Notes under the pieces: model-generated
Databases searched by the model: none
What the model was told of the DNA's origin: nothing
Seen by the model: only the letters and a program-made list of their open reading frames with translations
IMG/VR virus record: IMGVR_UViG_3300011894_000040
Span: 1-6,835 of that record
Reading direction: 5' to 3' (one strand)
Source: a virus
DNA length: 6,835 bases
Shown: piece after piece, positions 1-6,835 of the stretch
Layout: the number at the start of each line of letters is the position of its first letter
How positions within the stretch are numbered: position 1 is the stretch's first letter
Translations under genes and position numbers: made by a program

Positions 1-77
1 AGATCAATTGTCTACTTCTAAAAAAACTGATACTGCACAGCCTCAGAATGCTAATCTTGATAACAAAGTTAAATTAG
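1..77. repeat. Terminal overlap, left copy (identical to 6759-6835); signature of a circular assembly
   Basis: Base-by-base reading shows agatcaattgtctacttctaaaaaaactgatactgcacagcctcagaatgctaatcttgataacaaagttaaattag at both ends. The reading frame of gI is continuous across the junction. Confidence 0.95.
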
Positions 78-547
78 ATGTTATACCGAAGGTATCCGAA
101 GAGGATTGCAGAAAAGGTGTAAATGTTCAAAAACCTGAATGTGTTGAATACTTTAACCGTCTAACTAAAAATGGTGAGTCTGTTGGTGTTGCTGTACAAC
201 AAGTAAGCTATGATCCGTCTAAGCCTTTTGAATCAGCCGAAAAGATACAAGAAACGGTTTCATATCAGGTTACTGCAAAGCCTGTATTGTCTGGTTGTAT
301 GACCGATCGTCACGGTAAGTTAGTTGGATATACTCAACAAGGTACAATTATTCATGGCCTCAATCAGTCCGATTGCAAACGTATAATTAAAGGAGATCGT
401 CCGTTTAATTACTTTGCTCAGCAGTCTGTACAACAACCTGTACAGCAAGCAGTTCAACAAGTTGCCACTAATCAGTCCTATCAGGCTAATAACTATGTTC
501 AGGAAGGCCTAGAACGTAATCCAGTGAATGGCGCGAACCAATTATGA
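1..547 (+). CDS. gI: Gene I (Zot/pI-like assembly protein), C-terminal part: continuation of the CDS that starts at 6091 (unique part 78-547, stop TGA 545-547)
   Basis: The frame of track ORF 8-547 equals the frame of 6091 after adding 6758. The TTG at 8 is internal, not a start. This part lies after the TM segment (6673-6738), so it is predicted periplasmic. It has 4 Cys and a [S/P/A]VQQ x3 repeat (12-nt units at 428-463). Confidence 0.85.
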   Translation, partial: DQLSTSKKTDTAQPQNANLDNKVKLDVIPKVSEEDCRKGVNVQKPECVEYFNRLTKNGESVGVAVQQVSYDPSKPFESAEKIQETVSYQVTAKPVLSGCMTDRHGKLVGYTQQGTIIHGLNQSDCKRIIKGDRPFNYFAQQSVQQPVQQAVQQVATNQSYQANNYVQEGLERNPVNGANQL

Positions 548-571
548 ATTTCTTCCCTCTGATCACAAAAT

Positions 572-692
572 CCGTCTCTTCGATGTGACGTTGCGTCTTA
601 AAGAAGTGTCTTCAGGGGAATTGAGACACATCGAGACAGTCTATTGATTTACCGTATAATATGAGTGTCTCAAGGCGTAGTCTAGACACTTC
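572..692. promoter_or_regulatory. Array of GTCT/AGAC-based motifs (candidate operator or iteron cluster)
   Basis: GTCTC 574, GTCTT 595, GTGTCTT 605, GAGACAC 623, GAGACAG 633, GTCTA 639, GTGTCTC 665, GTCTAGAC 680-687 (perfect palindrome), AGACAGTCT 634-642 (palindrome). The longer form TTGAGACAC / GTGTCTCAA recurs at 621-629, 665-673 and 883-891. About 10 copies in 120 bp, against roughly 1 expected by chance. Confidence 0.5.
633..660 (+). promoter_or_regulatory. Candidate sigma70 promoter: -35 GAGACA (633-638), 16-nt spacer, -10 TATAAT (655-660)
   Basis: Perfect -10 hexamer, 4/6 -35 at correct spacing. The -35 is embedded in the GAGACA motif array. It would transcribe the 664-892 element and the ORF at 912. 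Confidence 0.45.
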
Positions 693-892
693 GACATGAT
701 GATATGTGAACGTTCAGAATGTTTACTGGAGTTTGGAAGGAAAACGTGATTGCAGCGGTGCCGTAAGCGAGCACGACGCACATGCATAGTGTCGTAGGCA
801 CCGCAAAAGGTAAGTGGCTGTAAAATGGATAGGAAATTTCTGAAGGTAGAGAGCTTATCACTTAAGATGTGTTTATCTCGCCTTGAGACACT
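664..892 (+). other. About 230-nt structured element closed by a perfect 14-bp inverted repeat (ssDNA structure or RNA leader)
   Basis: AGTGTCTCAAGGCG (664-677) is the exact reverse complement of CGCCTTGAGACACT (879-892). An internal hairpin pairs GCGGTGCC (755-762) with GGCACCGC (797-804), with an inner stem ACGAC/GTCGT and an ATGCAT loop. No convincing ORF inside (only 12- and 17-codon fragments). Confidence 0.55.
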
Positions 893-911
893 TAAAAATA
901 AGGGGTATTTG

Positions 912-1052
912 ATGGCTGTTTGGCAATTTGTTAAAGATAACTTTGGGACTTTTTGGTTTCTTTTTATGGGCATCTTCTTTTTAGTAAGAACGTTTTTTTG
1001 GCTTATTCGTCAGCTTCGATACCAAAAACATGATGATCAATATATCCCTTGA
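912..1052 (+). CDS. Small hydrophobic membrane protein, 46 aa (MAVWQFVKDNFGTFWFLFMGIFFLVRTFFWLIRQLRYQKHDDQYIP)
   Basis: In frame with track ORF 825-1052. I prefer the ATG at 912 because of the SD AGGGG (901-905) 6 nt upstream. It has one Phe/Trp-rich TM segment followed by basic residues. The ATG at 825 is an alternative start with no visible SD. Confidence 0.5.
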   Translation: MAVWQFVKDNFGTFWFLFMGIFFLVRTFFWLIRQLRYQKHDDQYIP

Positions 1053-1159
1053 TTGGCATTTTATTACATCTCGAGTCAAGCCGGTGAGCTCGCCCTGGAA
1101 TCAAAAAAATGAATAAAATCAACACTTATGATTTTTTATAGATTGGCAAAATATTACAT
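1051..1159 (+). repeat. Pair of 19-bp direct repeats GATTGGCA-nnnT-ATTACAT (1051-1069 and 1141-1159), 90 bp apart
   Basis: gattggcattttattacat versus gattggcaaaatattacat, 16/19 identical, differing only in a central ttt/aaa. Confidence 0.6.
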
Positions 1160-1176
1160 TTAATTACCCTTTTGAA

Positions 1177-1233
1177 GCTGAAATGATTTTATGAAAAACT
1201 GAAATTTTTCATAAAATTTTCAGCACATTTTTT
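1177..1233 (+). other. AT-rich imperfect hairpin followed by a T-run (terminator, packaging signal or minus-strand origin candidate)
   Basis: GCTGAAA (1177-1183) pairs with TTTCAGC (1218-1224). TTTTATGAAAAA (1187-1198) pairs with TTTTTCATAAAA (1205-1216). Loop is ctgaaa and the T6 run is at 1228-1233. Confidence 0.45.
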
Positions 1234-1242
1234 AGCGTCTGA

Positions 1243-1344
1243 AAGTTCGCATAATGTGATGCACAGATTATGTTACTAAGCCCCAGTGAGAAAATTACGA
1301 AGTCTCACGGGGCTTTTTAACATCAATCTGCATTATGCGAATTT
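1243..1344 (+). other. About 100-nt forked hairpin with dif-like arms: candidate ssDNA attP for XerCD (CTXphi-type)
   Basis: Paired blocks are 1246-1256/1331-1341 (TTCGCATAATG, 11 bp), 1264-1269/1325-1330, 1270-1275/1318-1323, 1278-1284/1309-1315 and 1286-1291/1303-1308. There is a 7-nt bulge TGATGCA (1257-1263). The top strand reads TTCGCATAA-n13-TTATGTTAC. The complement of the bottom strand reads TTCGCATAA-TGCAGA-TTGATGTTAAA. Confidence 0.6.
1278..1318 (+). terminator. Rho-independent terminator candidate (apical part of the forked hairpin)
   Basis: AAGCCCC-A-GTGAGA / TCTCAC-GGGGCTT stem, 11-nt loop, then TTTTT (1314-1318). Lies downstream of the ORF at 912-1052. Confidence 0.45.
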
Positions 1345-1350
1345 GAAAGG

Positions 1351-1400
1351 TTGGGGGAGTCCACGTCTTCTAATGGTGGACTCTAGTCCGAAATTTCGGA
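1351..1400 (+). other. Plus-strand (rolling-circle) origin core with predicted gpII nick site between T1371 and A1372
   Basis: TTGGGGGAGTCCACGTCTTCTAATGGTGGACTCTAGTCCGAAATTTCGGA aligns almost base for base with the f1/M13 origin TTGGAGTCCACGTTCTTTAATAGTGGACTCTTGTTCCAAACTGGAACA (recalled from memory). The hairpin pairs GAGTCCAC (1357-1364) with GTGGACTC (1376-1383). It is followed by the perfect 14-bp palindrome TCCGAAATTTCGGA (1387-1400), in the position of the f1 TGTTCCA/TGGAACA repeat. Confidence 0.85.
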
Positions 1401-1404
1401 ATTT

Positions 1405-1617
1405 TTATAGATCTTTTGCGTTTCTTACAACTACTTTTCCATGTGCTGATATCTCAACATTTTCTATAGCTTGATCAAGGATGATGTGTACAAGCTCACT
1501 ATCCTTGATCGGCTGTAGATTTTTATTGATCAGAATTTTATTGAGCTCTACACACTTCTTTCGTAGAGATTCTTGCTCTTTGTCATTTAAACGAACTGTT
1601 ACTGCCATTTTCGTCAC
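1405..1617 (-). CDS. Ribbon-helix-helix (CopG/Arc-like) transcriptional regulator candidate, 67-70 aa
   Basis: This is the only convincing minus-strand ORF. AVTVRLNDKEQESLRKKCVEL fits beta-strand plus helix A, and DSELVHIILDQAIEN fits helix B of RHH proteins. The track start at 1617 is GTG; the ATG at 1608 (MAVTVRL...) is equally plausible. It is divergent from gII, as repressors of temperate inoviruses are. Confidence 0.5.
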   Translation of the reverse strand: MTKMAVTVRLNDKEQESLRKKCVELNKILINKNLQPIKDSELVHIILDQAIENVEISAHGKVVVRNAKDL

Positions 1618-1737
1618 ATTTTCGGGTTATTAACTTGCATACAATATTACTTGTATATCTGTTATATGTGCTTGCTATTCATGTGTAATTGTATTAAATT
1701 CCGCTTAATGTTATTTGTATACATGCGTAATTAGCCC
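1618..1737. promoter_or_regulatory. Divergent control region between the RHH gene and gII
   Basis: AT-rich. It contains the inverted repeat ATACAA-n6-TTGTAT (1639-1656) and the TGTATACA palindrome (1716-1723). A minus-strand promoter candidate has -35 TTACAC (complement of 1683-1688) and -10 TATAAC (complement of 1661-1666) with a 16-nt spacer. A plus-strand candidate has TTGCTA (1672-1677) and TTAAAT (1694-1699). All are weak calls. Confidence 0.3.
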
Positions 1738-2961
1738 ATGCTAGATCATATTTGCATAAATGCGCCTTTTGAATCCAGCTTCTACTCAGTAGATGCGGAA
1801 GGGCGTTATTTTTTTGTAGATATCGATCTTCACAGTATAGAAATACCGCTTGCTTCTCGTTCTGTTCATAAGAATGACGATGGTTCAATTTCTGCTGCTG
1901 CGTTATTCCATCCGTTTGAGTCGGTTCCGACTCATTACACTGGTATGGCAATGAAAGTTTTTTTTGATTCTTCGTATGAACCTTTTGTACAGATCAAGGC
2001 TTCTCCTGCGAAATTGCTGCAAGGGCATAATGTCTTTGGCAGCGACAACATAGAGCAGGGTGCTATGGAAATGATCGGCTTCTTACATGAAGCTTATCCG
2101 CTTCTTGCAAGGATGCTAGATTGGCCTCGTGCATGGGTTTCACATATTGATGTGACTTACTCAGTACGATTGAAAGACCAGAACACAGCTAAAAAAGTTT
2201 TGGATTTCTTGAGCAATGTCAGCAATGGCCAGACTCGTTTAAGTAACAAGCGTTTCGACAGTTCAGTATATTGGGGAGGTCAGACTTCAAGACTTGTGAA
2301 TCACAAGTGTTATATGAAGCATGACGAATTTATCGCTCAATTTGAGGAGTATAAGCAACTTGCAAAGAAGAACGATAAAGCAGCTCAACGAGTTGTTGAT
2401 GTCATGTCCAATTCGGATCTGATTAACTGGACTGTCGGTCTTTTACGTTTTGAATCACGTTTAAAAAAACGTTGGCTTGAACGTAATGGAATTCCTACCA
2501 ATCTCTTTGATTTAATTAAGTTTCAACGTTCCAATCCAAATTTACTTCAAACACTCTGGACTAAAGCTACTCATAGCATTTTTGATGCCTTACGAGGTCA
2601 AACTATGAAATTAACAGACGATACTAGTGTTCTTGAAGCTATCCAACGATCTGATGTTGTTTTAACCAAATCTGGTAAAGCTTCCCCAACTAAAGTACGT
2701 AATTTATTTGCCATGTATTGTCTTATCCGCGAAAAGGGATTTGATGAAGTTAAAACGACTTATGGCAAGTCTCAATTTCACAATCTAATAGCCCAGTTAT
2801 GTGCTGTACAAGGTCTTAATAAAGGTATCTTGCAGAACTTACATACAGGCAATGCCAACAATATTATTCCGTTTATTAAGTTCGTAGACATAGATTTCAA
2901 TCAACAATTGCCAGATTGGTACGAAGAGCCAGTTTCGCAGTTCAACTACAAAATTGCATAG
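1738..2961 (+). CDS. gII: Replication initiation endonuclease gpII (Ff-type rolling-circle initiator), 407 aa
   Basis: Collinear blocks match M13 gpII as recalled. HPFESVPTHYTGMAMKVF / VQIKASPAKLLQGHNVFG matches HPFESLPTHYSGIAFKIY / VEIKASPAKVLQGHNVFG. LSNVSNGQT matches LRNVSNGQT, and GLLRFESRLKKRWL matches GLVRFEARIKTRYL. NIIPFIKFVDIDFNQQLPDWYEEPV matches NVVPLVRFINVDFSSQRPDWYNEPV, and both proteins end in KIA. Tyr192 (tat 2311-2313, in CYMKH) aligns with M13 Tyr197 (AYLKH). Confidence 0.95.
   Translation: MLDHICINAPFESSFYSVDAEGRYFFVDIDLHSIEIPLASRSVHKNDDGSISAAALFHPFESVPTHYTGMAMKVFFDSSYEPFVQIKASPAKLLQGHNVFGSDNIEQGAMEMIGFLHEAYPLLARMLDWPRAWVSHIDVTYSVRLKDQNTAKKVLDFLSNVSNGQTRLSNKRFDSSVYWGGQTSRLVNHKCYMKHDEFIAQFEEYKQLAKKNDKAAQRVVDVMSNSDLINWTVGLLRFESRLKKRWLERNGIPTNLFDLIKFQRSNPNLLQTLWTKATHSIFDALRGQTMKLTDDTSVLEAIQRSDVVLTKSGKASPTKVRNLFAMYCLIREKGFDEVKTTYGKSQFHNLIAQLCAVQGLNKGILQNLHTGNANNIIPFIKFVDIDFNQQLPDWYEEPVSQFNYKIA
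2605..2961 (+). CDS. gX: gpX equivalent: in-frame internal translation product of gII, 118 aa
   Basis: The ATG at 2605 (Met290 of gpII) sits at the position homologous to the M13 gX start (MKLTDDTSVLEAIQ versus MNIYDDSAVLDAIQ). It is preceded by GAGG (2594-2597) with 7-nt spacing. Confidence 0.7.
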   Translation: MKLTDDTSVLEAIQRSDVVLTKSGKASPTKVRNLFAMYCLIREKGFDEVKTTYGKSQFHNLIAQLCAVQGLNKGILQNLHTGNANNIIPFIKFVDIDFNQQLPDWYEEPVSQFNYKIA

Positions 2962-2969
2962 GTGAGCAA

Positions 2970-3305
2970 ATGAACAATTCACAACATCCGATTATGACAG
3001 TTACAGGCATCCGTAAAGCTGCTGGCGACTTTCAGGACGATAAAGGCAAAACAATCGAGTTCTCAAACACGGTTGTAACTGTATTACAGAATTACTCTGA
3101 GCGTGAGCTTGAACAAGGTGCAATCGGATTCAAATCTACCGATTACAAAATCAAAGGCGCTCAGTTCTTTAATGATTACATGCATCAGAAGCTACCAGCC
3201 GAGGCTGCAATGATCTTTGATTGGGATTTCACGGGCAAACAGCCAAAGGCTGTGTTGGTTGCGCTAGATTTCAATGCGAAGAAACAGGAAGTTAAACCTC
3301 TATGA
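2970..3305 (+). CDS. ssDNA-binding protein candidate (gV position), 111 aa
   Basis: SD AGGTGA (2960-2965) precedes the ATG at 2970; the upstream part of track ORF 2916 overlaps the gII end and is discounted. It lies immediately after gII/gX as in Ff. The motif DKGKTIEFSNT resembles the QGKPYSLNE (M13 gpV) and KGNPYTFQE (Pf3 SSB) DNA-binding wing as recalled. Similarity is weak, so the call is mainly positional. Confidence 0.55.
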   Translation: MNNSQHPIMTVTGIRKAAGDFQDDKGKTIEFSNTVVTVLQNYSERELEQGAIGFKSTDYKIKGAQFFNDYMHQKLPAEAAMIFDWDFTGKQPKAVLVALDFNAKKQEVKPL

Positions 3306-3457
3306 TCAACATAAATCATTTTCAATCAGTTGTTTGCGCGGATTGTGGCGTTAAGTTTAAACCAGCATCACGATATTTAGAGTTGGGTGCTCACAAACCA
3401 CATTGCACACAAATAAGAGAAGAAACGGAAGAAAAACCTGTACAAACAAAGGCATAA
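3302..3457 (+). CDS. Small CxxC...HxxxC zinc-finger-like protein A, 51 aa (MININHFQSVVCADCGVKFKPASRYLELGAHKPHCTQIREETEEKPVQTKA)
   Basis: Not in the ORF track (too short). The ATG at 3302 overlaps the gV-like stop (ATGA coupling), and AGGAAG lies at 3286-3291. It has a CxxC-x15-HxxxC motif and an acidic/basic tail. It is paralogous in pattern to the ORF at 3514. Confidence 0.5.
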   Translation: MININHFQSVVCADCGVKFKPASRYLELGAHKPHCTQIREETEEKPVQTKA

Positions 3458-3464
3458 ATATACC

Positions 3465-3492
3465 GTTTCGCATAATGTATAATATGTTAAAA
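3465..3492 (+). other. Near-canonical 28-bp dif-like XerC/XerD site (GTTTCGCATAA-TGTATA-ATATGTTAAAA)
   Basis: 24/28 identical to E. coli dif GGTGCGCATAA-TGTATA-TTATGTTAAAT (9/11 XerC arm, 6/6 central, 9/11 XerD arm). The XerC arm plus first central bases (TTCGCATAATGT) are identical to 1246-1257. The same bases also contain TGTATAAT (3476-3483), an extended -10. Confidence 0.75.
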
Positions 3493-3513
3493 ATCAACAA
3501 CTTAGGTGATTTT

Positions 3514-3627
3514 ATGATTAAAAAGATAACACCAATGATGGGGGATAATCAAGTGGAATGTCCTAAATGTTATTCGTATTTTCACCGCAAATATTTGGCT
3601 TTTCACATGTCTAAGTGTGAAGGCTAA
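3514..3627 (+). CDS. Small CxxC...HxxxC zinc-finger-like protein B, 37 aa (MIKKITPMMGDNQVECPKCYSYFHRKYLAFHMSKCEG)
   Basis: SD AGGTGA (3504-3509) precedes the ATG at 3514. The upstream part of track ORF 3403 starts at TTG and reads through the dif-like site, so it is discounted. It has a CxxC-x11-HxxxC motif and shares V.C..C...F...(R/K)YL...H...C with protein A. Confidence 0.5.
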   Translation: MIKKITPMMGDNQVECPKCYSYFHRKYLAFHMSKCEG

Positions 3628-3636
3628 CTGGGGATT

Positions 3637-3852
3637 ATGAGTATGCAGATTGATGATTGCACAGCAACAACGGTAATCAATGGGGTCAATTACTGCGTAC
3701 TCGTCATACATCAACAAAGCTGGCTAGACGAACTCAACAATTTAACAGTTGTCCAAGTTGGTCTATTACTGTCTAGCACAGCGTTGATTTGGTACGTTGC
3801 TTGGGGCATACGTGCTGCTTTAGACCTACTTGGACATGATCATGAGGATTAA
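3637..3852 (+). CDS. Membrane protein sharing the major coat protein's C-terminal motif, 69-71 aa; candidate minor or cap coat protein
   Basis: It has a C-terminal TM (VVQVGLLLSSTALIWYVAWGI). YVAWGIRAALDLL (3793-3831) matches YVGWGIRRALSLL of gVIII (4075-4113) at 10/13 residues. There is no signal peptide and the tail is acidic (GHDHED). The ATG at 3643 has better spacing to GGGGA (3630-3634) than the ATG at 3637. Confidence 0.6.
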   Translation: MSMQIDDCTATTVINGVNYCVLVIHQQSWLDELNNLTVVQVGLLLSSTALIWYVAWGIRAALDLLGHDHED

Positions 3853-3855
3853 CAC

Positions 3856-4119
3856 ATGGAAAATAATCAACAACCTCTACAAGCTACTGATAACACCAAA
3901 AAGGCTGTTACTGCCGTAAAACGCGCAGCTATGACTGCTGGTGTTGTAATGGCAACTACTGCTGCGGCATTTGCTGAAGATGGGGGCACTTCGATTGATT
4001 TAACCACTGGCTTGGCTGGTGTTGCGATTATTGCGGGTCTTCTTTCTGTAGGTAGCCTCAAGGCTGTACCAACATATGTTGGTTGGGGTATTCGTCGAGC
4101 GTTATCACTTCTTCGCTAA
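3856..4119 (+). CDS. gVIII: Major coat protein precursor (gVIII type), 87 aa, predicted mature 47 aa
   Basis: SD GAGGA (3844-3848) lies 7 nt upstream. The leader ends in AFA with cleavage predicted before EDGG. The mature protein has an acidic N-terminus (E, D, D), a hydrophobic core (GLAGVAIIAGLLSVG) and a basic C-terminus (K, R, R, R). It is followed directly by a strong terminator, as in Ff. Confidence 0.85.
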   Translation: MENNQQPLQATDNTKKAVTAVKRAAMTAGVVMATTAAAFAEDGGTSIDLTTGLAGVAIIAGLLSVGSLKAVPTYVGWGIRRALSLLR

Positions 4120-4136
4120 TTGATAAAACAAAAAAA

Positions 4137-4182
4137 AGCTGGGAGGAGCGCACAGCTGTACGCACCTCACCCAGCTTTTTTT
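4137..4182 (+). terminator. Rho-independent terminator after the coat gene
   Basis: AGCTGGG (4137-4143) pairs with CCCAGCT (4170-4176), with further AGG/CCT and GCG/CGC pairs. It is followed by T7 (4176-4182) and preceded by an A-run, so it may work in both directions. Confidence 0.85.
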
Positions 4183-4201
4183 ATAACTGGAGTAAAGCGA
4201 A

Positions 4202-4264
4202 ATGACCGTCTATTACATCATTGTGGTGGCTCTTGCGTTGTGGATCGTCTTGTCGGGGAAATAG
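4202..4264 (+). CDS. 20-aa hydrophobic mini-ORF (MTVYYIIVVALALWIVLSGK), candidate gVII/gIX-like minor coat or membrane peptide
   Basis: Not in the ORF track. GGAG (4189-4192) lies upstream. The stop TAG (4262-4264) is 1 nt before the gIII ATG at 4266, which suggests translational coupling. It is a single TM-length hydrophobic stretch. Confidence 0.4.
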   Translation: MTVYYIIVVALALWIVLSGK

Positions 4265-4265
4265 T

Positions 4266-5812
<1,547 letters not shown>

Positions 5813-5813
<1 letters not shown>

Positions 5814-6091
5814 TGCTTAAGTTTCTCGCAAAGTTAACAGAATGGTTATTAAAAAACTCGGTTCAAAAGGTGCTTACTGGGGCGGGTTTATCGGTGGTTT
5901 CTTACCTGTCTGTAGTAGCTGTAATAAGGGTCGCTTTTAACAGTTTAATTAATTCAATTTATAGCGTTTCTGCTGATCTTCTTAATTTTATGGGTATTTG
6001 TGGGATCGATTACGCTTTAAGTGGTTTCGTTTCTGTAGCTGTTTTCTTGATGAGTATTAAACAAGGCAGCTTATCTTTGAGGAAAAAATAA
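5813..6091 (+). CDS. Small multi-TM membrane protein at the gVI position, immediately upstream of the Zot-like gene (as Ace is upstream of Zot in CTXphi), 92 aa
   Basis: The ATG at 5813 overlaps the gIII stop (TAATG), with GGAG at 5802-5805. Its own stop overlaps the gI start (TAATG at 6089-6093). It has two to three hydrophobic segments. The call is positional. Confidence 0.6.
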
Positions 6092-6835
6092 TGAGTCAAT
6101 CTGCTGGCGGTACGTTTCGACTTGTTTGCGGTCAAATTGGCGCGGGTAAATCATATCTGTATGTTAAACAAGTAGAAGAAGAAATTAAAAAAAGTGGCAA
6201 ATATAAAAAGATTTATTCAAACATTCGTGCACATGCTGAATTAGCTGAAGGTATTACACCACTTCCAGACGATTGGCGAGAATGTGAACCTGATAGCCTT
6301 GTAATTATTGACGAGGTACAGAAACATGAGAAGTTTAGTAAACACTTCTCCAGTCGTCGTGATAGCGAGATTGTAGACCTTACAATGATTCGACATCAGC
6401 GTTTAGATTTATGGCTTATCAGCCCCAATCCAGCGCTAGTAAACAGTGATGTGCGGAACCTTGTGACACAGTATTTCTGGCTTGAAGTTGTAGGTGCTAA
6501 AACAACGAAATGCTATTGTTTTACGAAGGTTTATAACAGTATTACCAAATCAATTAAATTACAGGCTTATGATGAGTTTGTTTATACAATCGAAGAGAAG
6601 TATCACAAACTTTATAAATCTACTGAAGACGGTATAGCATCAGGTCGTAACTATAATTTTAATGTTAAGTTATGGGGCTTTGTAGGTGGTTTGGTTGTTG
6701 TAGTTATTGTGGCTTGTTTTCTTGTAGGTTTTTTTGCAAAGGGGACAAAAACAAAAAAAGATCAATTGTCTACTTCTAAAAAAACTGATACTGCACAGCC
6801 TCAGAATGCTAATCTTGATAACAAAGTTAAATTAG
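6091..6835 (+). CDS. gI: Gene I (Zot/pI-like assembly ATPase), N-terminal part; the CDS continues across the circular junction to 547 (404 aa in total)
   Basis: Absent from the ORF track because it has no stop inside the window. SD GAGGA (6079-6083) is present. Walker A is GQIGAGKS (6130-6153; M13 pI has GKLGAGKT). Walker B-like is LVIIDEVQ (M13 has LLVLDECG). The TM segment is LWGFVGGLVVVVIVACFLVGFF. Confidence 0.9.
   Translation, partial: MSQSAGGTFRLVCGQIGAGKSYLYVKQVEEEIKKSGKYKKIYSNIRAHAELAEGITPLPDDWRECEPDSLVIIDEVQKHEKFSKHFSSRRDSEIVDLTMIRHQRLDLWLISPNPALVNSDVRNLVTQYFWLEVVGAKTTKCYCFTKVYNSITKSIKLQAYDEFVYTIEEKYHKLYKSTEDGIASGRNYNFNVKLWGFVGGLVVVVIVACFLVGFFAKGTKTKKDQLSTSKKTDTAQPQNANLDNKVKL
6759..6835. 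repeat. Terminal overlap, right copy (identical to 1-77)
   Basis: Same 77-nt string as 1-77. Position p at the left end corresponds to p+6758. Confidence 0.95.

Follow-up and report, generated by a model that had tools for sequence, protein, structure and literature searches.

Small C2HC zinc-finger genes on both sides of the dif-like site in an Acinetobacter filamentous phage

We analyzed a window of 6835 bases, the whole of the stretch taken from the IMG/VR virus record IMGVR_UViG_3300011894_000040 (positions 1 to 6,835), which is a circular inovirus genome with about 77 identical bases at both ends. The window is an Acinetobacter filamentous phage. Two small open reading frames (ORFs) on the plus strand, ORF A (51 amino acids (aa), 3302-3457) and ORF B (37 aa, 3514-3627), flank a dif-like phage attachment site (attP, 3465-3492, plus strand). 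We find that both are genuine conserved genes of Acinetobacter inoviruses and that each encodes one C2HC finger. In the best reading of the pair, ORF A closes one exchangeable genome module and ORF B opens the next, with no duplication involved. We propose, with a probability of about 0.4, that the fingers are small basic nucleic-acid-binding accessory factors at work on the phage DNA while replication gives way to assembly or integration.

The original prediction of two Cys/His mini-ORFs on either side of the dif-like site was confirmed at these positions. When the six frames of the window are read for ORFs of 25 aa or longer, exactly two, ORF A and ORF B, carry the pattern C..C-x8-20-H-x3-4-C. 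Markov-1 simulated windows contain a mean of 0.038 such ORFs, and two or more were found in 1 of 1000 simulations. The prediction had also made the case for the genes depend on conservation of the ORFs and of their Cys/His positions in related genomes, and both are conserved.

ORF B is intact in 31 IMG/VR loci, at identities down to 54%, and in Acinetobacter phage M02, where the homologue at 161-274 is unannotated in the phage record (L001, GenBank OQ693633; L and P numbers are our designations for related loci and database proteins). A profile search added 17 more database proteins. The candidate zinc ligands of ORF B are C16, C19, H31 and C35, spaced C-x2-C-x11-H-x3-C, and these Cys and His positions do not vary in 22 distinct B proteins, in another 19 proteins from the databases or in 22 proteins of a second type, type C, described below. 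The invariant residues of ORF B are G10, C16, C19, S21, F23, L28, H31, C35 and G37. His24 was excluded as a ligand because it is Arg in two members. Across 24 distinct coding sequences the median ratio of non-synonymous to synonymous substitution rates (dN/dS) is 0.15, with synonymous sites near saturation, and the alternative frames over ORF B are mostly closed. The ATG at 3514, together with the Shine-Dalgarno-like AGGTGA read from the sequence 4 nt upstream of it (3504-3509, plus strand), was taken as the start because this pair is what stays conserved; in related loci cttaggtga is conserved 5' of ORF B. Two longer starts, a TTG giving 74 aa and an ATG giving 50 aa, were rejected, as their frame is closed just past the XerD arm of the site in most relatives. 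As read from the sequence, the protein has a net charge of +3.

The ATG of ORF A overlaps the stop codon of the gV-like gene (ATGA), and ORF A is translationally coupled to gV. Its ligand candidates are C12, C15, H31 and C35 (C-x2-C-x15-H-x3-C), followed by a variable acidic/basic tail. The gene was found in eight IMG/VR loci at 82-100% identity, and three database homologues (P0001-P0003) are 86-90% identical, one of them from an A. baumannii chromosome. Since H34 is replaced by Asn in P0001, H34 was excluded as a ligand and H31 was taken. Comparing the two sequence types of ORF A, we count 4 synonymous and 0-2 non-synonymous differences in the finger part (codons 1-37), and 3 synonymous and 9 non-synonymous ones in the tail. 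ORF A is rare and always stands behind a gV of the window type (82-100% identity; L003-L010, L014). In loci without ORF A, close gV relatives stop 6-8 codons earlier and run directly into the dif-like site. A Paenibacillus match to ORF A in a scan of genome contigs was rejected as spurious, the common part being only 'ETEEKPVQ'. We read ORF A as a rare accessory finger that was added to one gV type and closes the replication module.

Both ORFs are very short and mostly unannotated, and the M02 record omits its copy, so that one might take them for chance ORFs or for sequence conserved merely as DNA, as part of the attachment region. We give this virtually no weight. The number expected per window is far below the two found, the low dN/dS with saturated synonymous sites and invariant ligands is that of coding sequence under constraint, and ORF B is also conserved where no dif-like site is present. 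At the level of sequence, this pattern of selection effectively refutes the alternative.

A scan of IMG/VR for the phage-type core TTCGYATAATGTATAATATGT gave >119 contigs; the 120 distinct dif contexts counted here are those with enough downstream DNA. In 109 of them a C2HC mini-ORF starts 16-50 nt past the dif-like site, 35 being of ORF B type and 74 of type C. A member of type B or C is the first structural-module gene directly after attP in about 90% of dif-integrating Acinetobacter inoviruses. Type-C proteins have 29-34 residues, the consensus MTQxxYKCKKCGxxFxxHxxYxxHFYxC and the ligand spacing C-x2-C-x12-H-x3-C, and they are basic, with up to 7 Lys in 29 residues. Profile-profile alignment with hhalign joins B and type C over their whole length (probability 84%, E 7e-6), and on this evidence the two appear to form one superfamily. 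Based on the same method, the similarity of A to type C is limited to 16 columns (CxxCGxxFxxxxxY; probability 24%, E 8e-4), which is suggestive only of kinship. Between A and B there was no BLASTP alignment at E<=100, and hhalign gave a probability of 0.7% (E 0.08). The description of A and B as paralogous or duplicated is thus not demonstrable. The pattern V.C..C...F...(R/K)YL...H...C that had been proposed for both proteins does fit both, but only with gaps, and its 'KYL' is particular to the ORF B of the window; most ORF B homologues have QYL or QIL at this position.

Small zinc-binding ORFs upstream of the site arose at least three times. Besides ORF A, a different C2HC ORF (MKYEYIRCAGCGQMIMRINFQKRKFHLDNCEIFE) lies just 5' of the dif-like site in L065 (3948-4058), and a C4 ribbon (..CSEC..x17..CPKC..) lies just 5' of the site in L103 (~11578-11721, minus orientation); both loci have a type-C finger downstream. 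In L008, ORF A is followed by the dif-like site and then by a type-C gene where ORF B would stand. Only Acinetobacter inoviruses have the family. Its members combine freely with different gV, Rep and coat types, and some lineages do without them.

The AlphaFold2 model of ORF B, built from the family alignment, places strands at 13-15 and 22-24 before a helix at 25-34 (predicted local distance difference test score, pLDDT, 76), the order of hairpin then helix that is typical of classical fingers. ORF B is therefore predicted to be a classical beta-beta-alpha C2HC finger, not a treble clef; of the original assignment, the zinc-binding signature and the solubility stand and the treble clef does not. 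The ligand spacing of classical fingers (C-x2-4-C-x12-H-x3-5-H/C) is found in ORF B and in type C. So is their hydrophobic core, with F23 and L28 invariant in ORF B and F15 and Y/F/L21 conserved in type C. For ORF A the model (pLDDT 68) shows residues 7-12 as a strand and 21-30 as a helix that ends at H31; the core candidates are F19 and Y25/L26, and the x15 spacer is outside the usual range of classical fingers. This weaker model is compatible with a stretched beta-beta-alpha fold.

Based on Foldseek, the closest PDB structures to ORF B are the UBZ4 fingers of WRNIP1 and RAD18 (3vhs, 5vf0), at 0.5-0.7 A over 23 residues, and the other look-alikes are C2H2 fingers, Sgf11 and TRAF6. The WRNIP1 and RAD18 matches have E values of 0.5-1.7 and are insignificant because the domain is very small. 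In a fold search of BFVD the matches were TRAF and C2H2 fingers of giant viruses, none with an E value below 0.1, and the ORF B profile searched against the PDB had Krueppel-type C2H2 fingers as its best matches (E 0.015-0.5). For ORF A, the profile against the PDB and the Foldseek search of the model gave only insignificant zinc modules (sirtuins, RING domains). An exhaustive hidden Markov model (HMM) search of 1.84 billion representatives retrieved only 24 proteins, a few small Acinetobacter proteins and long multi-finger arrays (Pfam zf-C2H2, zf-C2HC_2). At the Pfam gathering threshold ORF A has no match, ORF B has ZNF512_C2HC as its best at 9.9 bits against a cut-off of 27, and the first type-C member is below threshold for zf-C2H2 at 19.2 bits against a cut-off of 25.2. 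Sub-threshold matches to zf-C2H2 are found for 17 of 22 type-C members (best E 4.9e-5). In scans of A, B and type C against Pfam, PHROG, NCBIfam and PADLOC no family was above threshold.

The fingers share with classical C2H2/C2HC fingers (PF00096, PF13913) the spacing C-x2-C-x11/12-H-x3-C and the core Phe plus Leu/Tyr. Classical fingers, however, are repeats or modules of eukaryotic proteins, whereas those described here stand alone, have 29-51 residues and come from a bacterial single-stranded DNA virus. UBZ4 fingers bind ubiquitin, which bacteria do not have, and a UBZ function therefore cannot carry over to ORF B. As a separate observation, M02-like phages encode, behind the zot gene, a protein of about 100 aa (L012 1856-2164, L015 3850-4110) that ends in another C2HC finger (FCSICSNLVLKEQFDDHLDKCLEG), by its looks strikingly like the RAD18/WRNIP1 UBZ4 fingers. 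As far as our searches go, the fold class is known and the finger family is new, with no Pfam, PHROG or NCBIfam model and no paper found; a literature search on zinc fingers in inoviruses or beside dif found nothing relevant.

Comparison of the genomes shows that phages of this group are mosaics, with the dif-like site as the point at which replication modules and structural modules are newly combined. The only similar phage in GenBank is Acinetobacter phage M02, with similarity limited to 1228-2961 (86%). This similarity ends at the dif-like site: gII is common (90%), gV and the structural module are different, and ORF B is kept at 84%. In L021 the structural module is 98-100% identical to that of the window and the upstream gV end and replication module are not common, and in L003 the replication module and ORF A are identical (100%). 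That ORF A and ORF B lie on either side of the Xer site follows from the position of attP between two exchangeable modules. The earlier suggestion of a hybrid genome formed by recombination at the site holds in this general sense, the mosaicism being real, but not in the sense of a duplicated finger pair.

Tandem arrays, including repeats of the replication module alone, were found in L003, L005, L006 and L010. In L010 (871-4445), and also in L003 and L006, gII-gV repeats with a period of about 2 kb and no structural genes lie upstream of a full phage; they resemble the RS1-type satellites of CTXphi. The deposited M02 genome (L001, 1-140 and 5860-6243) looks like an excised prophage, with two copies of about 100 nt from the gV end, a host-type dif (TTCGTATAATGTATATTATGTTAAAT) at 5929-5956 and then about 290 nt that match no phage gene. 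Tandem arrays of filamentous prophages have been reported in A. baumannii (PMC11209303), and the arrays seen in IMG/VR loci agree with them.

The position of the fingers beside a Xer site invites the idea that they serve it. In 99 of 104 distinct finger-gene contexts the finger lies <=160 nt downstream of a dif-like site. Finger and site nevertheless dissociate both ways. Four relatives (L034, L036, L037, L038) keep ORF B between a gV-like gene and structural genes, together with a Rep_trans Rep, and encode their own PF00589 tyrosine integrase. No dif-like half-site was found anywhere in L036-L038, and L034 has a single XerC-arm-like match with one mismatch (9459-9469). In L214 the order is gV, a 44-aa ORF, ORF B and the coat gene, and a site would have no room. 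A mobilizable plasmid of A. johnsonii (L212, NZ_CP140710, 5444-6700) carries an ORF B homologue, and phage Rep and gV are absent. Conversely, eight dif-type phages are finger-less, the site being directly followed by a small membrane protein. No covariation was found between ORF B sequence and XerD-arm variant: identical proteins occur beside different arms, and the homologue P0013 stands beside a near-canonical XerD arm. A mini-finger ORF was not found in the Xer-using inoviruses VGJphi, Cf1c and XacF1, and the attP of VGJphi lies in the regulatory region instead. As a side observation on the plasmid, its gene order is a divergent phrog_5642 repressor-like gene, a phrog_20873 gene, ORF B (with a TAATG overlap) and a 39-aa membrane protein, and weak pdif-like sites lie 600-800 nt downstream of the ORF B cluster.

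Because of this double dissociation, a dedicated Xer role of the fingers seems unlikely, and the analogy of role with XafT that had been offered for them is disfavored. XafT, a Xer activation factor, comes from TLCphi, a Vibrio satellite phage whose integration at dif uses a degenerate XerD arm (PMC9226527). Both XafT and the fingers are small and phage-encoded and come from elements that integrate at dif with a degenerate XerD arm. They have no relationship in Pfam, PHROG or NCBIfam, the fold predicted here is a zinc finger, and the obligate association with a Xer site that marks the XafT class is absent from the fingers. We still weighed the possibility that the fingers are Xer accessory factors, resembling XafT in role only, that bind attP or XerC/XerD and stimulate, direct or stabilize integration at dif, or that they shield the prophage from FtsK-driven excision. 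The frequent adjacency, the recurrence of zinc-binding ORFs upstream of the site as well (ORF A, L065, L103) and the restriction to Acinetobacter, which would suit a partner specific to the host Xer system, are in line with it. So is the degenerate XerD arm of attP, as in the Xer-exploiting integrative mobile elements (IMEX) that need help (PMC9226527). The adjacency, however, follows from gene order together with crossover in the site center, the scans gave no Pfam similarity, including to the helix-turn-helix-type XafT family, and the dissociation, the absence of covariation and the finger-less Xer-using phages all count against such a role, which we regard as unlikely in either form. A broader version, in which the A, B and C fingers are a new class of phage helpers of Xer-type site-specific recombination in Acinetobacter, is quite unlikely. 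Such helpers might, for example, bind the degenerate XerD arm or a folded hairpin at 1240-1352 (described below), or contact XerC/XerD, and would promote integration or module exchange, possibly with the integration host factor (IHF) at a flanking site; the integrase-bearing relatives would pair the same helper with their own tyrosine recombinase.

The reading we prefer is that the fingers are accessory nucleic-acid binders. Both finger genes would share the transcript of the main operon with gV and the coat gene, and this co-expression is supported by the finding that a consensus scan gave no promoter-like site between gV and the coat gene. The fingers, which are basic and aromatic-rich, would act on phage DNA, most likely in single-stranded or hairpin form. 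They would act when replication and gV coating give way to assembly or integration, and would be helpful, not indispensable. Small basic Cys/His zinc modules are known from retroviral nucleocapsids (CCHC knuckles), from a zinc subdomain of T4 gp32 and from P2 Ogr and Mu Com, and such viral modules handle single-stranded nucleic acid or regulate late genes. These knuckle and ribbon modules differ from the fingers in spacing and in fold, which is predicted to be beta-beta-alpha here, and no homology was detected. Several points weigh against our reading. Among the homologues, none of known function backs nucleic-acid binding, and expression is inferred. Single beta-beta-alpha fingers of UBZ4 type bind proteins, not DNA; the helix positions with which classical fingers read DNA are mostly aromatic here (H24, Y27, F30); and outside the family none of the fold or sequence matches reaches significance (E >= 0.1 with Foldseek, below gathering scores with Pfam). 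The free re-assortment with gV, Rep and coat and the restriction to Acinetobacter suit a host-protein target equally, and, with 95% of finger genes adjoining a dif-like site, a facultative Xer-related role keeps a small probability.

A host-protein target is the substance of a rival that we consider somewhat unlikely, in which the fingers are UBZ- or TRAF-like modules that bind an Acinetobacter protein and serve, for example, in superinfection exclusion, anti-defense or modulation of a replication or repair factor. The closest look-alikes, the UBZ4 fingers of WRNIP1 and RAD18, TRAF6 and Sgf11, bind proteins, the helix surface is aromatic-rich, and the genes shuffle independently of phage modules within one host genus and are dispensable in some lineages. 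The structural matches are insignificant, however, there is no match in PADLOC or annotated families, basic proteins also suit nucleic-acid binding, and the partner is not identifiable computationally. Very unlikely, in our view, is that the fingers regulate transcription or translation, including by binding the GTCT/AGAC array at 572-692, in the manner of the small zinc-binding phage regulators P2 Ogr and Mu Com. Although ORF B heads the structural block, no promoter-like site adjoins the genes, there is no match to the Ogr/Delta or Com families, and finger-less phages express the same kind of structural genes. The array and the fingers do not co-occur, contrary to the proposal that the fingers bind it: clusters of >=6 GTGTCT/GAGACA were found in 7 of the 35 loci with ORF B, 20 of the 96 with type C and 12 of the 16 without a finger. 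The remotest of these functions is that of virion or assembly parts replacing Ff pVII/pIX, for example a tip adaptor that recognizes the packaging signal. The size of 29-51 aa and the position between gV and coat do resemble gVII/gIX, and retroviral CCHC knuckles select packaging signals. However, pVII and pIX are hydrophobic, whereas ORF A and ORF B have many charges and no hydrophobic stretch or membrane segment, zinc bound by Cys would probably not persist in the extracellular medium, and eight otherwise similar phages are finger-less. Hydrophobic small proteins are moreover still encoded downstream (3637-3852, 4202-4264). Of the earlier view that soluble, charged proteins occupy the gVII/gIX slot, the solubility and charge are borne out and a replacement is not.

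The attP itself consists of a XerC arm (GTTTCGCATAA), the center TGTATA and a degenerate XerD arm (ATATGTTAAAA). Compared with the dif of Acinetobacter ADP1, GATTCGTATAATGTATATTATGTTAAAT (PMC2731167), its central region is identical and each arm has 2 changes. Prophage ends with a host-type XerD arm were found in L001 (5929-5951), L004 (6481-6503) and L007 (2459-2481). Abutting the XerD arm, AATCAACAACTTA (3492-3504, plus strand) is the only window match to WATCAANNNNTTR, the IHF consensus; 0.72 matches are expected per window. The stretch AA(A)TCAA[TC]AACTTA recurs in practically every one of >100 distinct dif contexts, be they with B, with C or finger-less, and this conserved DNA beside the XerD arm, judged by its sequence, fits an IHF site. 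Through a phage-specific T-to-A change at the first XerD-arm base, the TATATT of the host becomes a perfect TATAAT within attP (3478-3483); the change is conserved in all phage-type sites. As a promoter of ORF B this TATAAT is unsupported, the consensus scan having given no acceptable -35. A related phage group uses another dif variant (TTCGTATAATATAGATTATGTTAAA), and there the structural module alone lies between two copies, beside the host DcaP gene (L215 2518-2542 and 7327-7351; L217 31-55 and 4840-4864).

As single-stranded DNA, positions 1240-1352 would form a long forked hairpin (-29.5 kcal/mol, z = -8.0), with a XerC-arm-like stem (TTCGCATAATG/CATTATGCGAA), a 7-nt bulge and a XerD-arm-like stem containing TTATGTTA. 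It resembles the single-strand attP of CTXphi. Of 220 fetched loci, 29 contain the motif TTCGCATAATGTGATG. In L003 this motif and the XerC arm after ORF A form a direct fusion, and the replication module is therefore bounded by two Xer-type sites. The hairpin is not exclusive to finger phages, as the finger-less L042, L068 and L128 have the second Xer-like hairpin site. The GTGTCT/GAGACA repeats (572-692, 880-890) surround a TATAAT at 655-660 and occur in a minority of related loci, independently of the fingers; they are probably operators of a module-specific regulator.

The genes around the fingers follow a filamentous-phage order. A Zot-like gI gene (6091 wrapping round to 547, plus strand) is followed by the GTCT/AGAC array and by a divergent repressor-like gene of 70 aa (1405-1617, minus strand, phrog_5642). 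The Rep gII gene (1738-2961, plus strand; Pfam Phage_CRI, E 2e-49) has directly 3' of it the gV-like gene for a single-stranded DNA-binding protein of 111 aa (2970-3305, plus strand; phrog_4994, E 7.5e-20). After ORF A, attP and ORF B comes a gene for a 71-aa small membrane protein (3637-3852, plus strand), a candidate for the gVII/gIX slot, with a hydrophobic C-terminal half and weak PHROG matches; it is conserved at 91-100% in L005, L008, L014, L016 and L021. The major coat protein gene (3856-4119, plus strand; weak Inovirus_capsid and phrog_2186 matches) ends the presumed gII-gV-ORF A-ORF B-coat transcription unit. A 20-aa hydrophobic ORF (4202-4264) follows the coat gene, and a gIII-like gene and then gVI (DUF2523) lie downstream of it. 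An inverted repeat followed by a T-run was read from the sequence at ~4132-4181; a consensus scan of 3200-4300 gave no terminator.

Among known phage genes, RstC of RS1, the satellite of CTXphi, is a small extra gene that ends a module of repressor, Rep and single-stranded DNA-binding protein beside an attachment site. The likeness concerns ORF A only and was drawn by description, not by sequence. To our knowledge RstC is not known as a zinc finger. The likeness to RS1 extends to the tandem repeats of the replication module alone that were described above (L010, L003, L006).

Many Acinetobacter baumannii isolates have filamentous prophages at dif, frequently as tandem and mixed arrays, and the accessory genes of these phages are hardly characterized. 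The family newly defined here consists of stand-alone fingers of classical type, of 29-51 residues, that are present in about nine of ten dif-type Acinetobacter inoviruses and located at the boundary of module exchange. The tempting inference that adjacency to attP means a Xer function is corrected by the comparison across these phages. Classical beta-beta-alpha fingers are rare in bacteria and their viruses, and these would be among the smallest natural examples. They are small enough to be easily synthesized and tested. Whatever their partner, be it phage DNA, the Xer proteins or a host factor, the fingers would provide a handle on phage replication, assembly or lysogeny.

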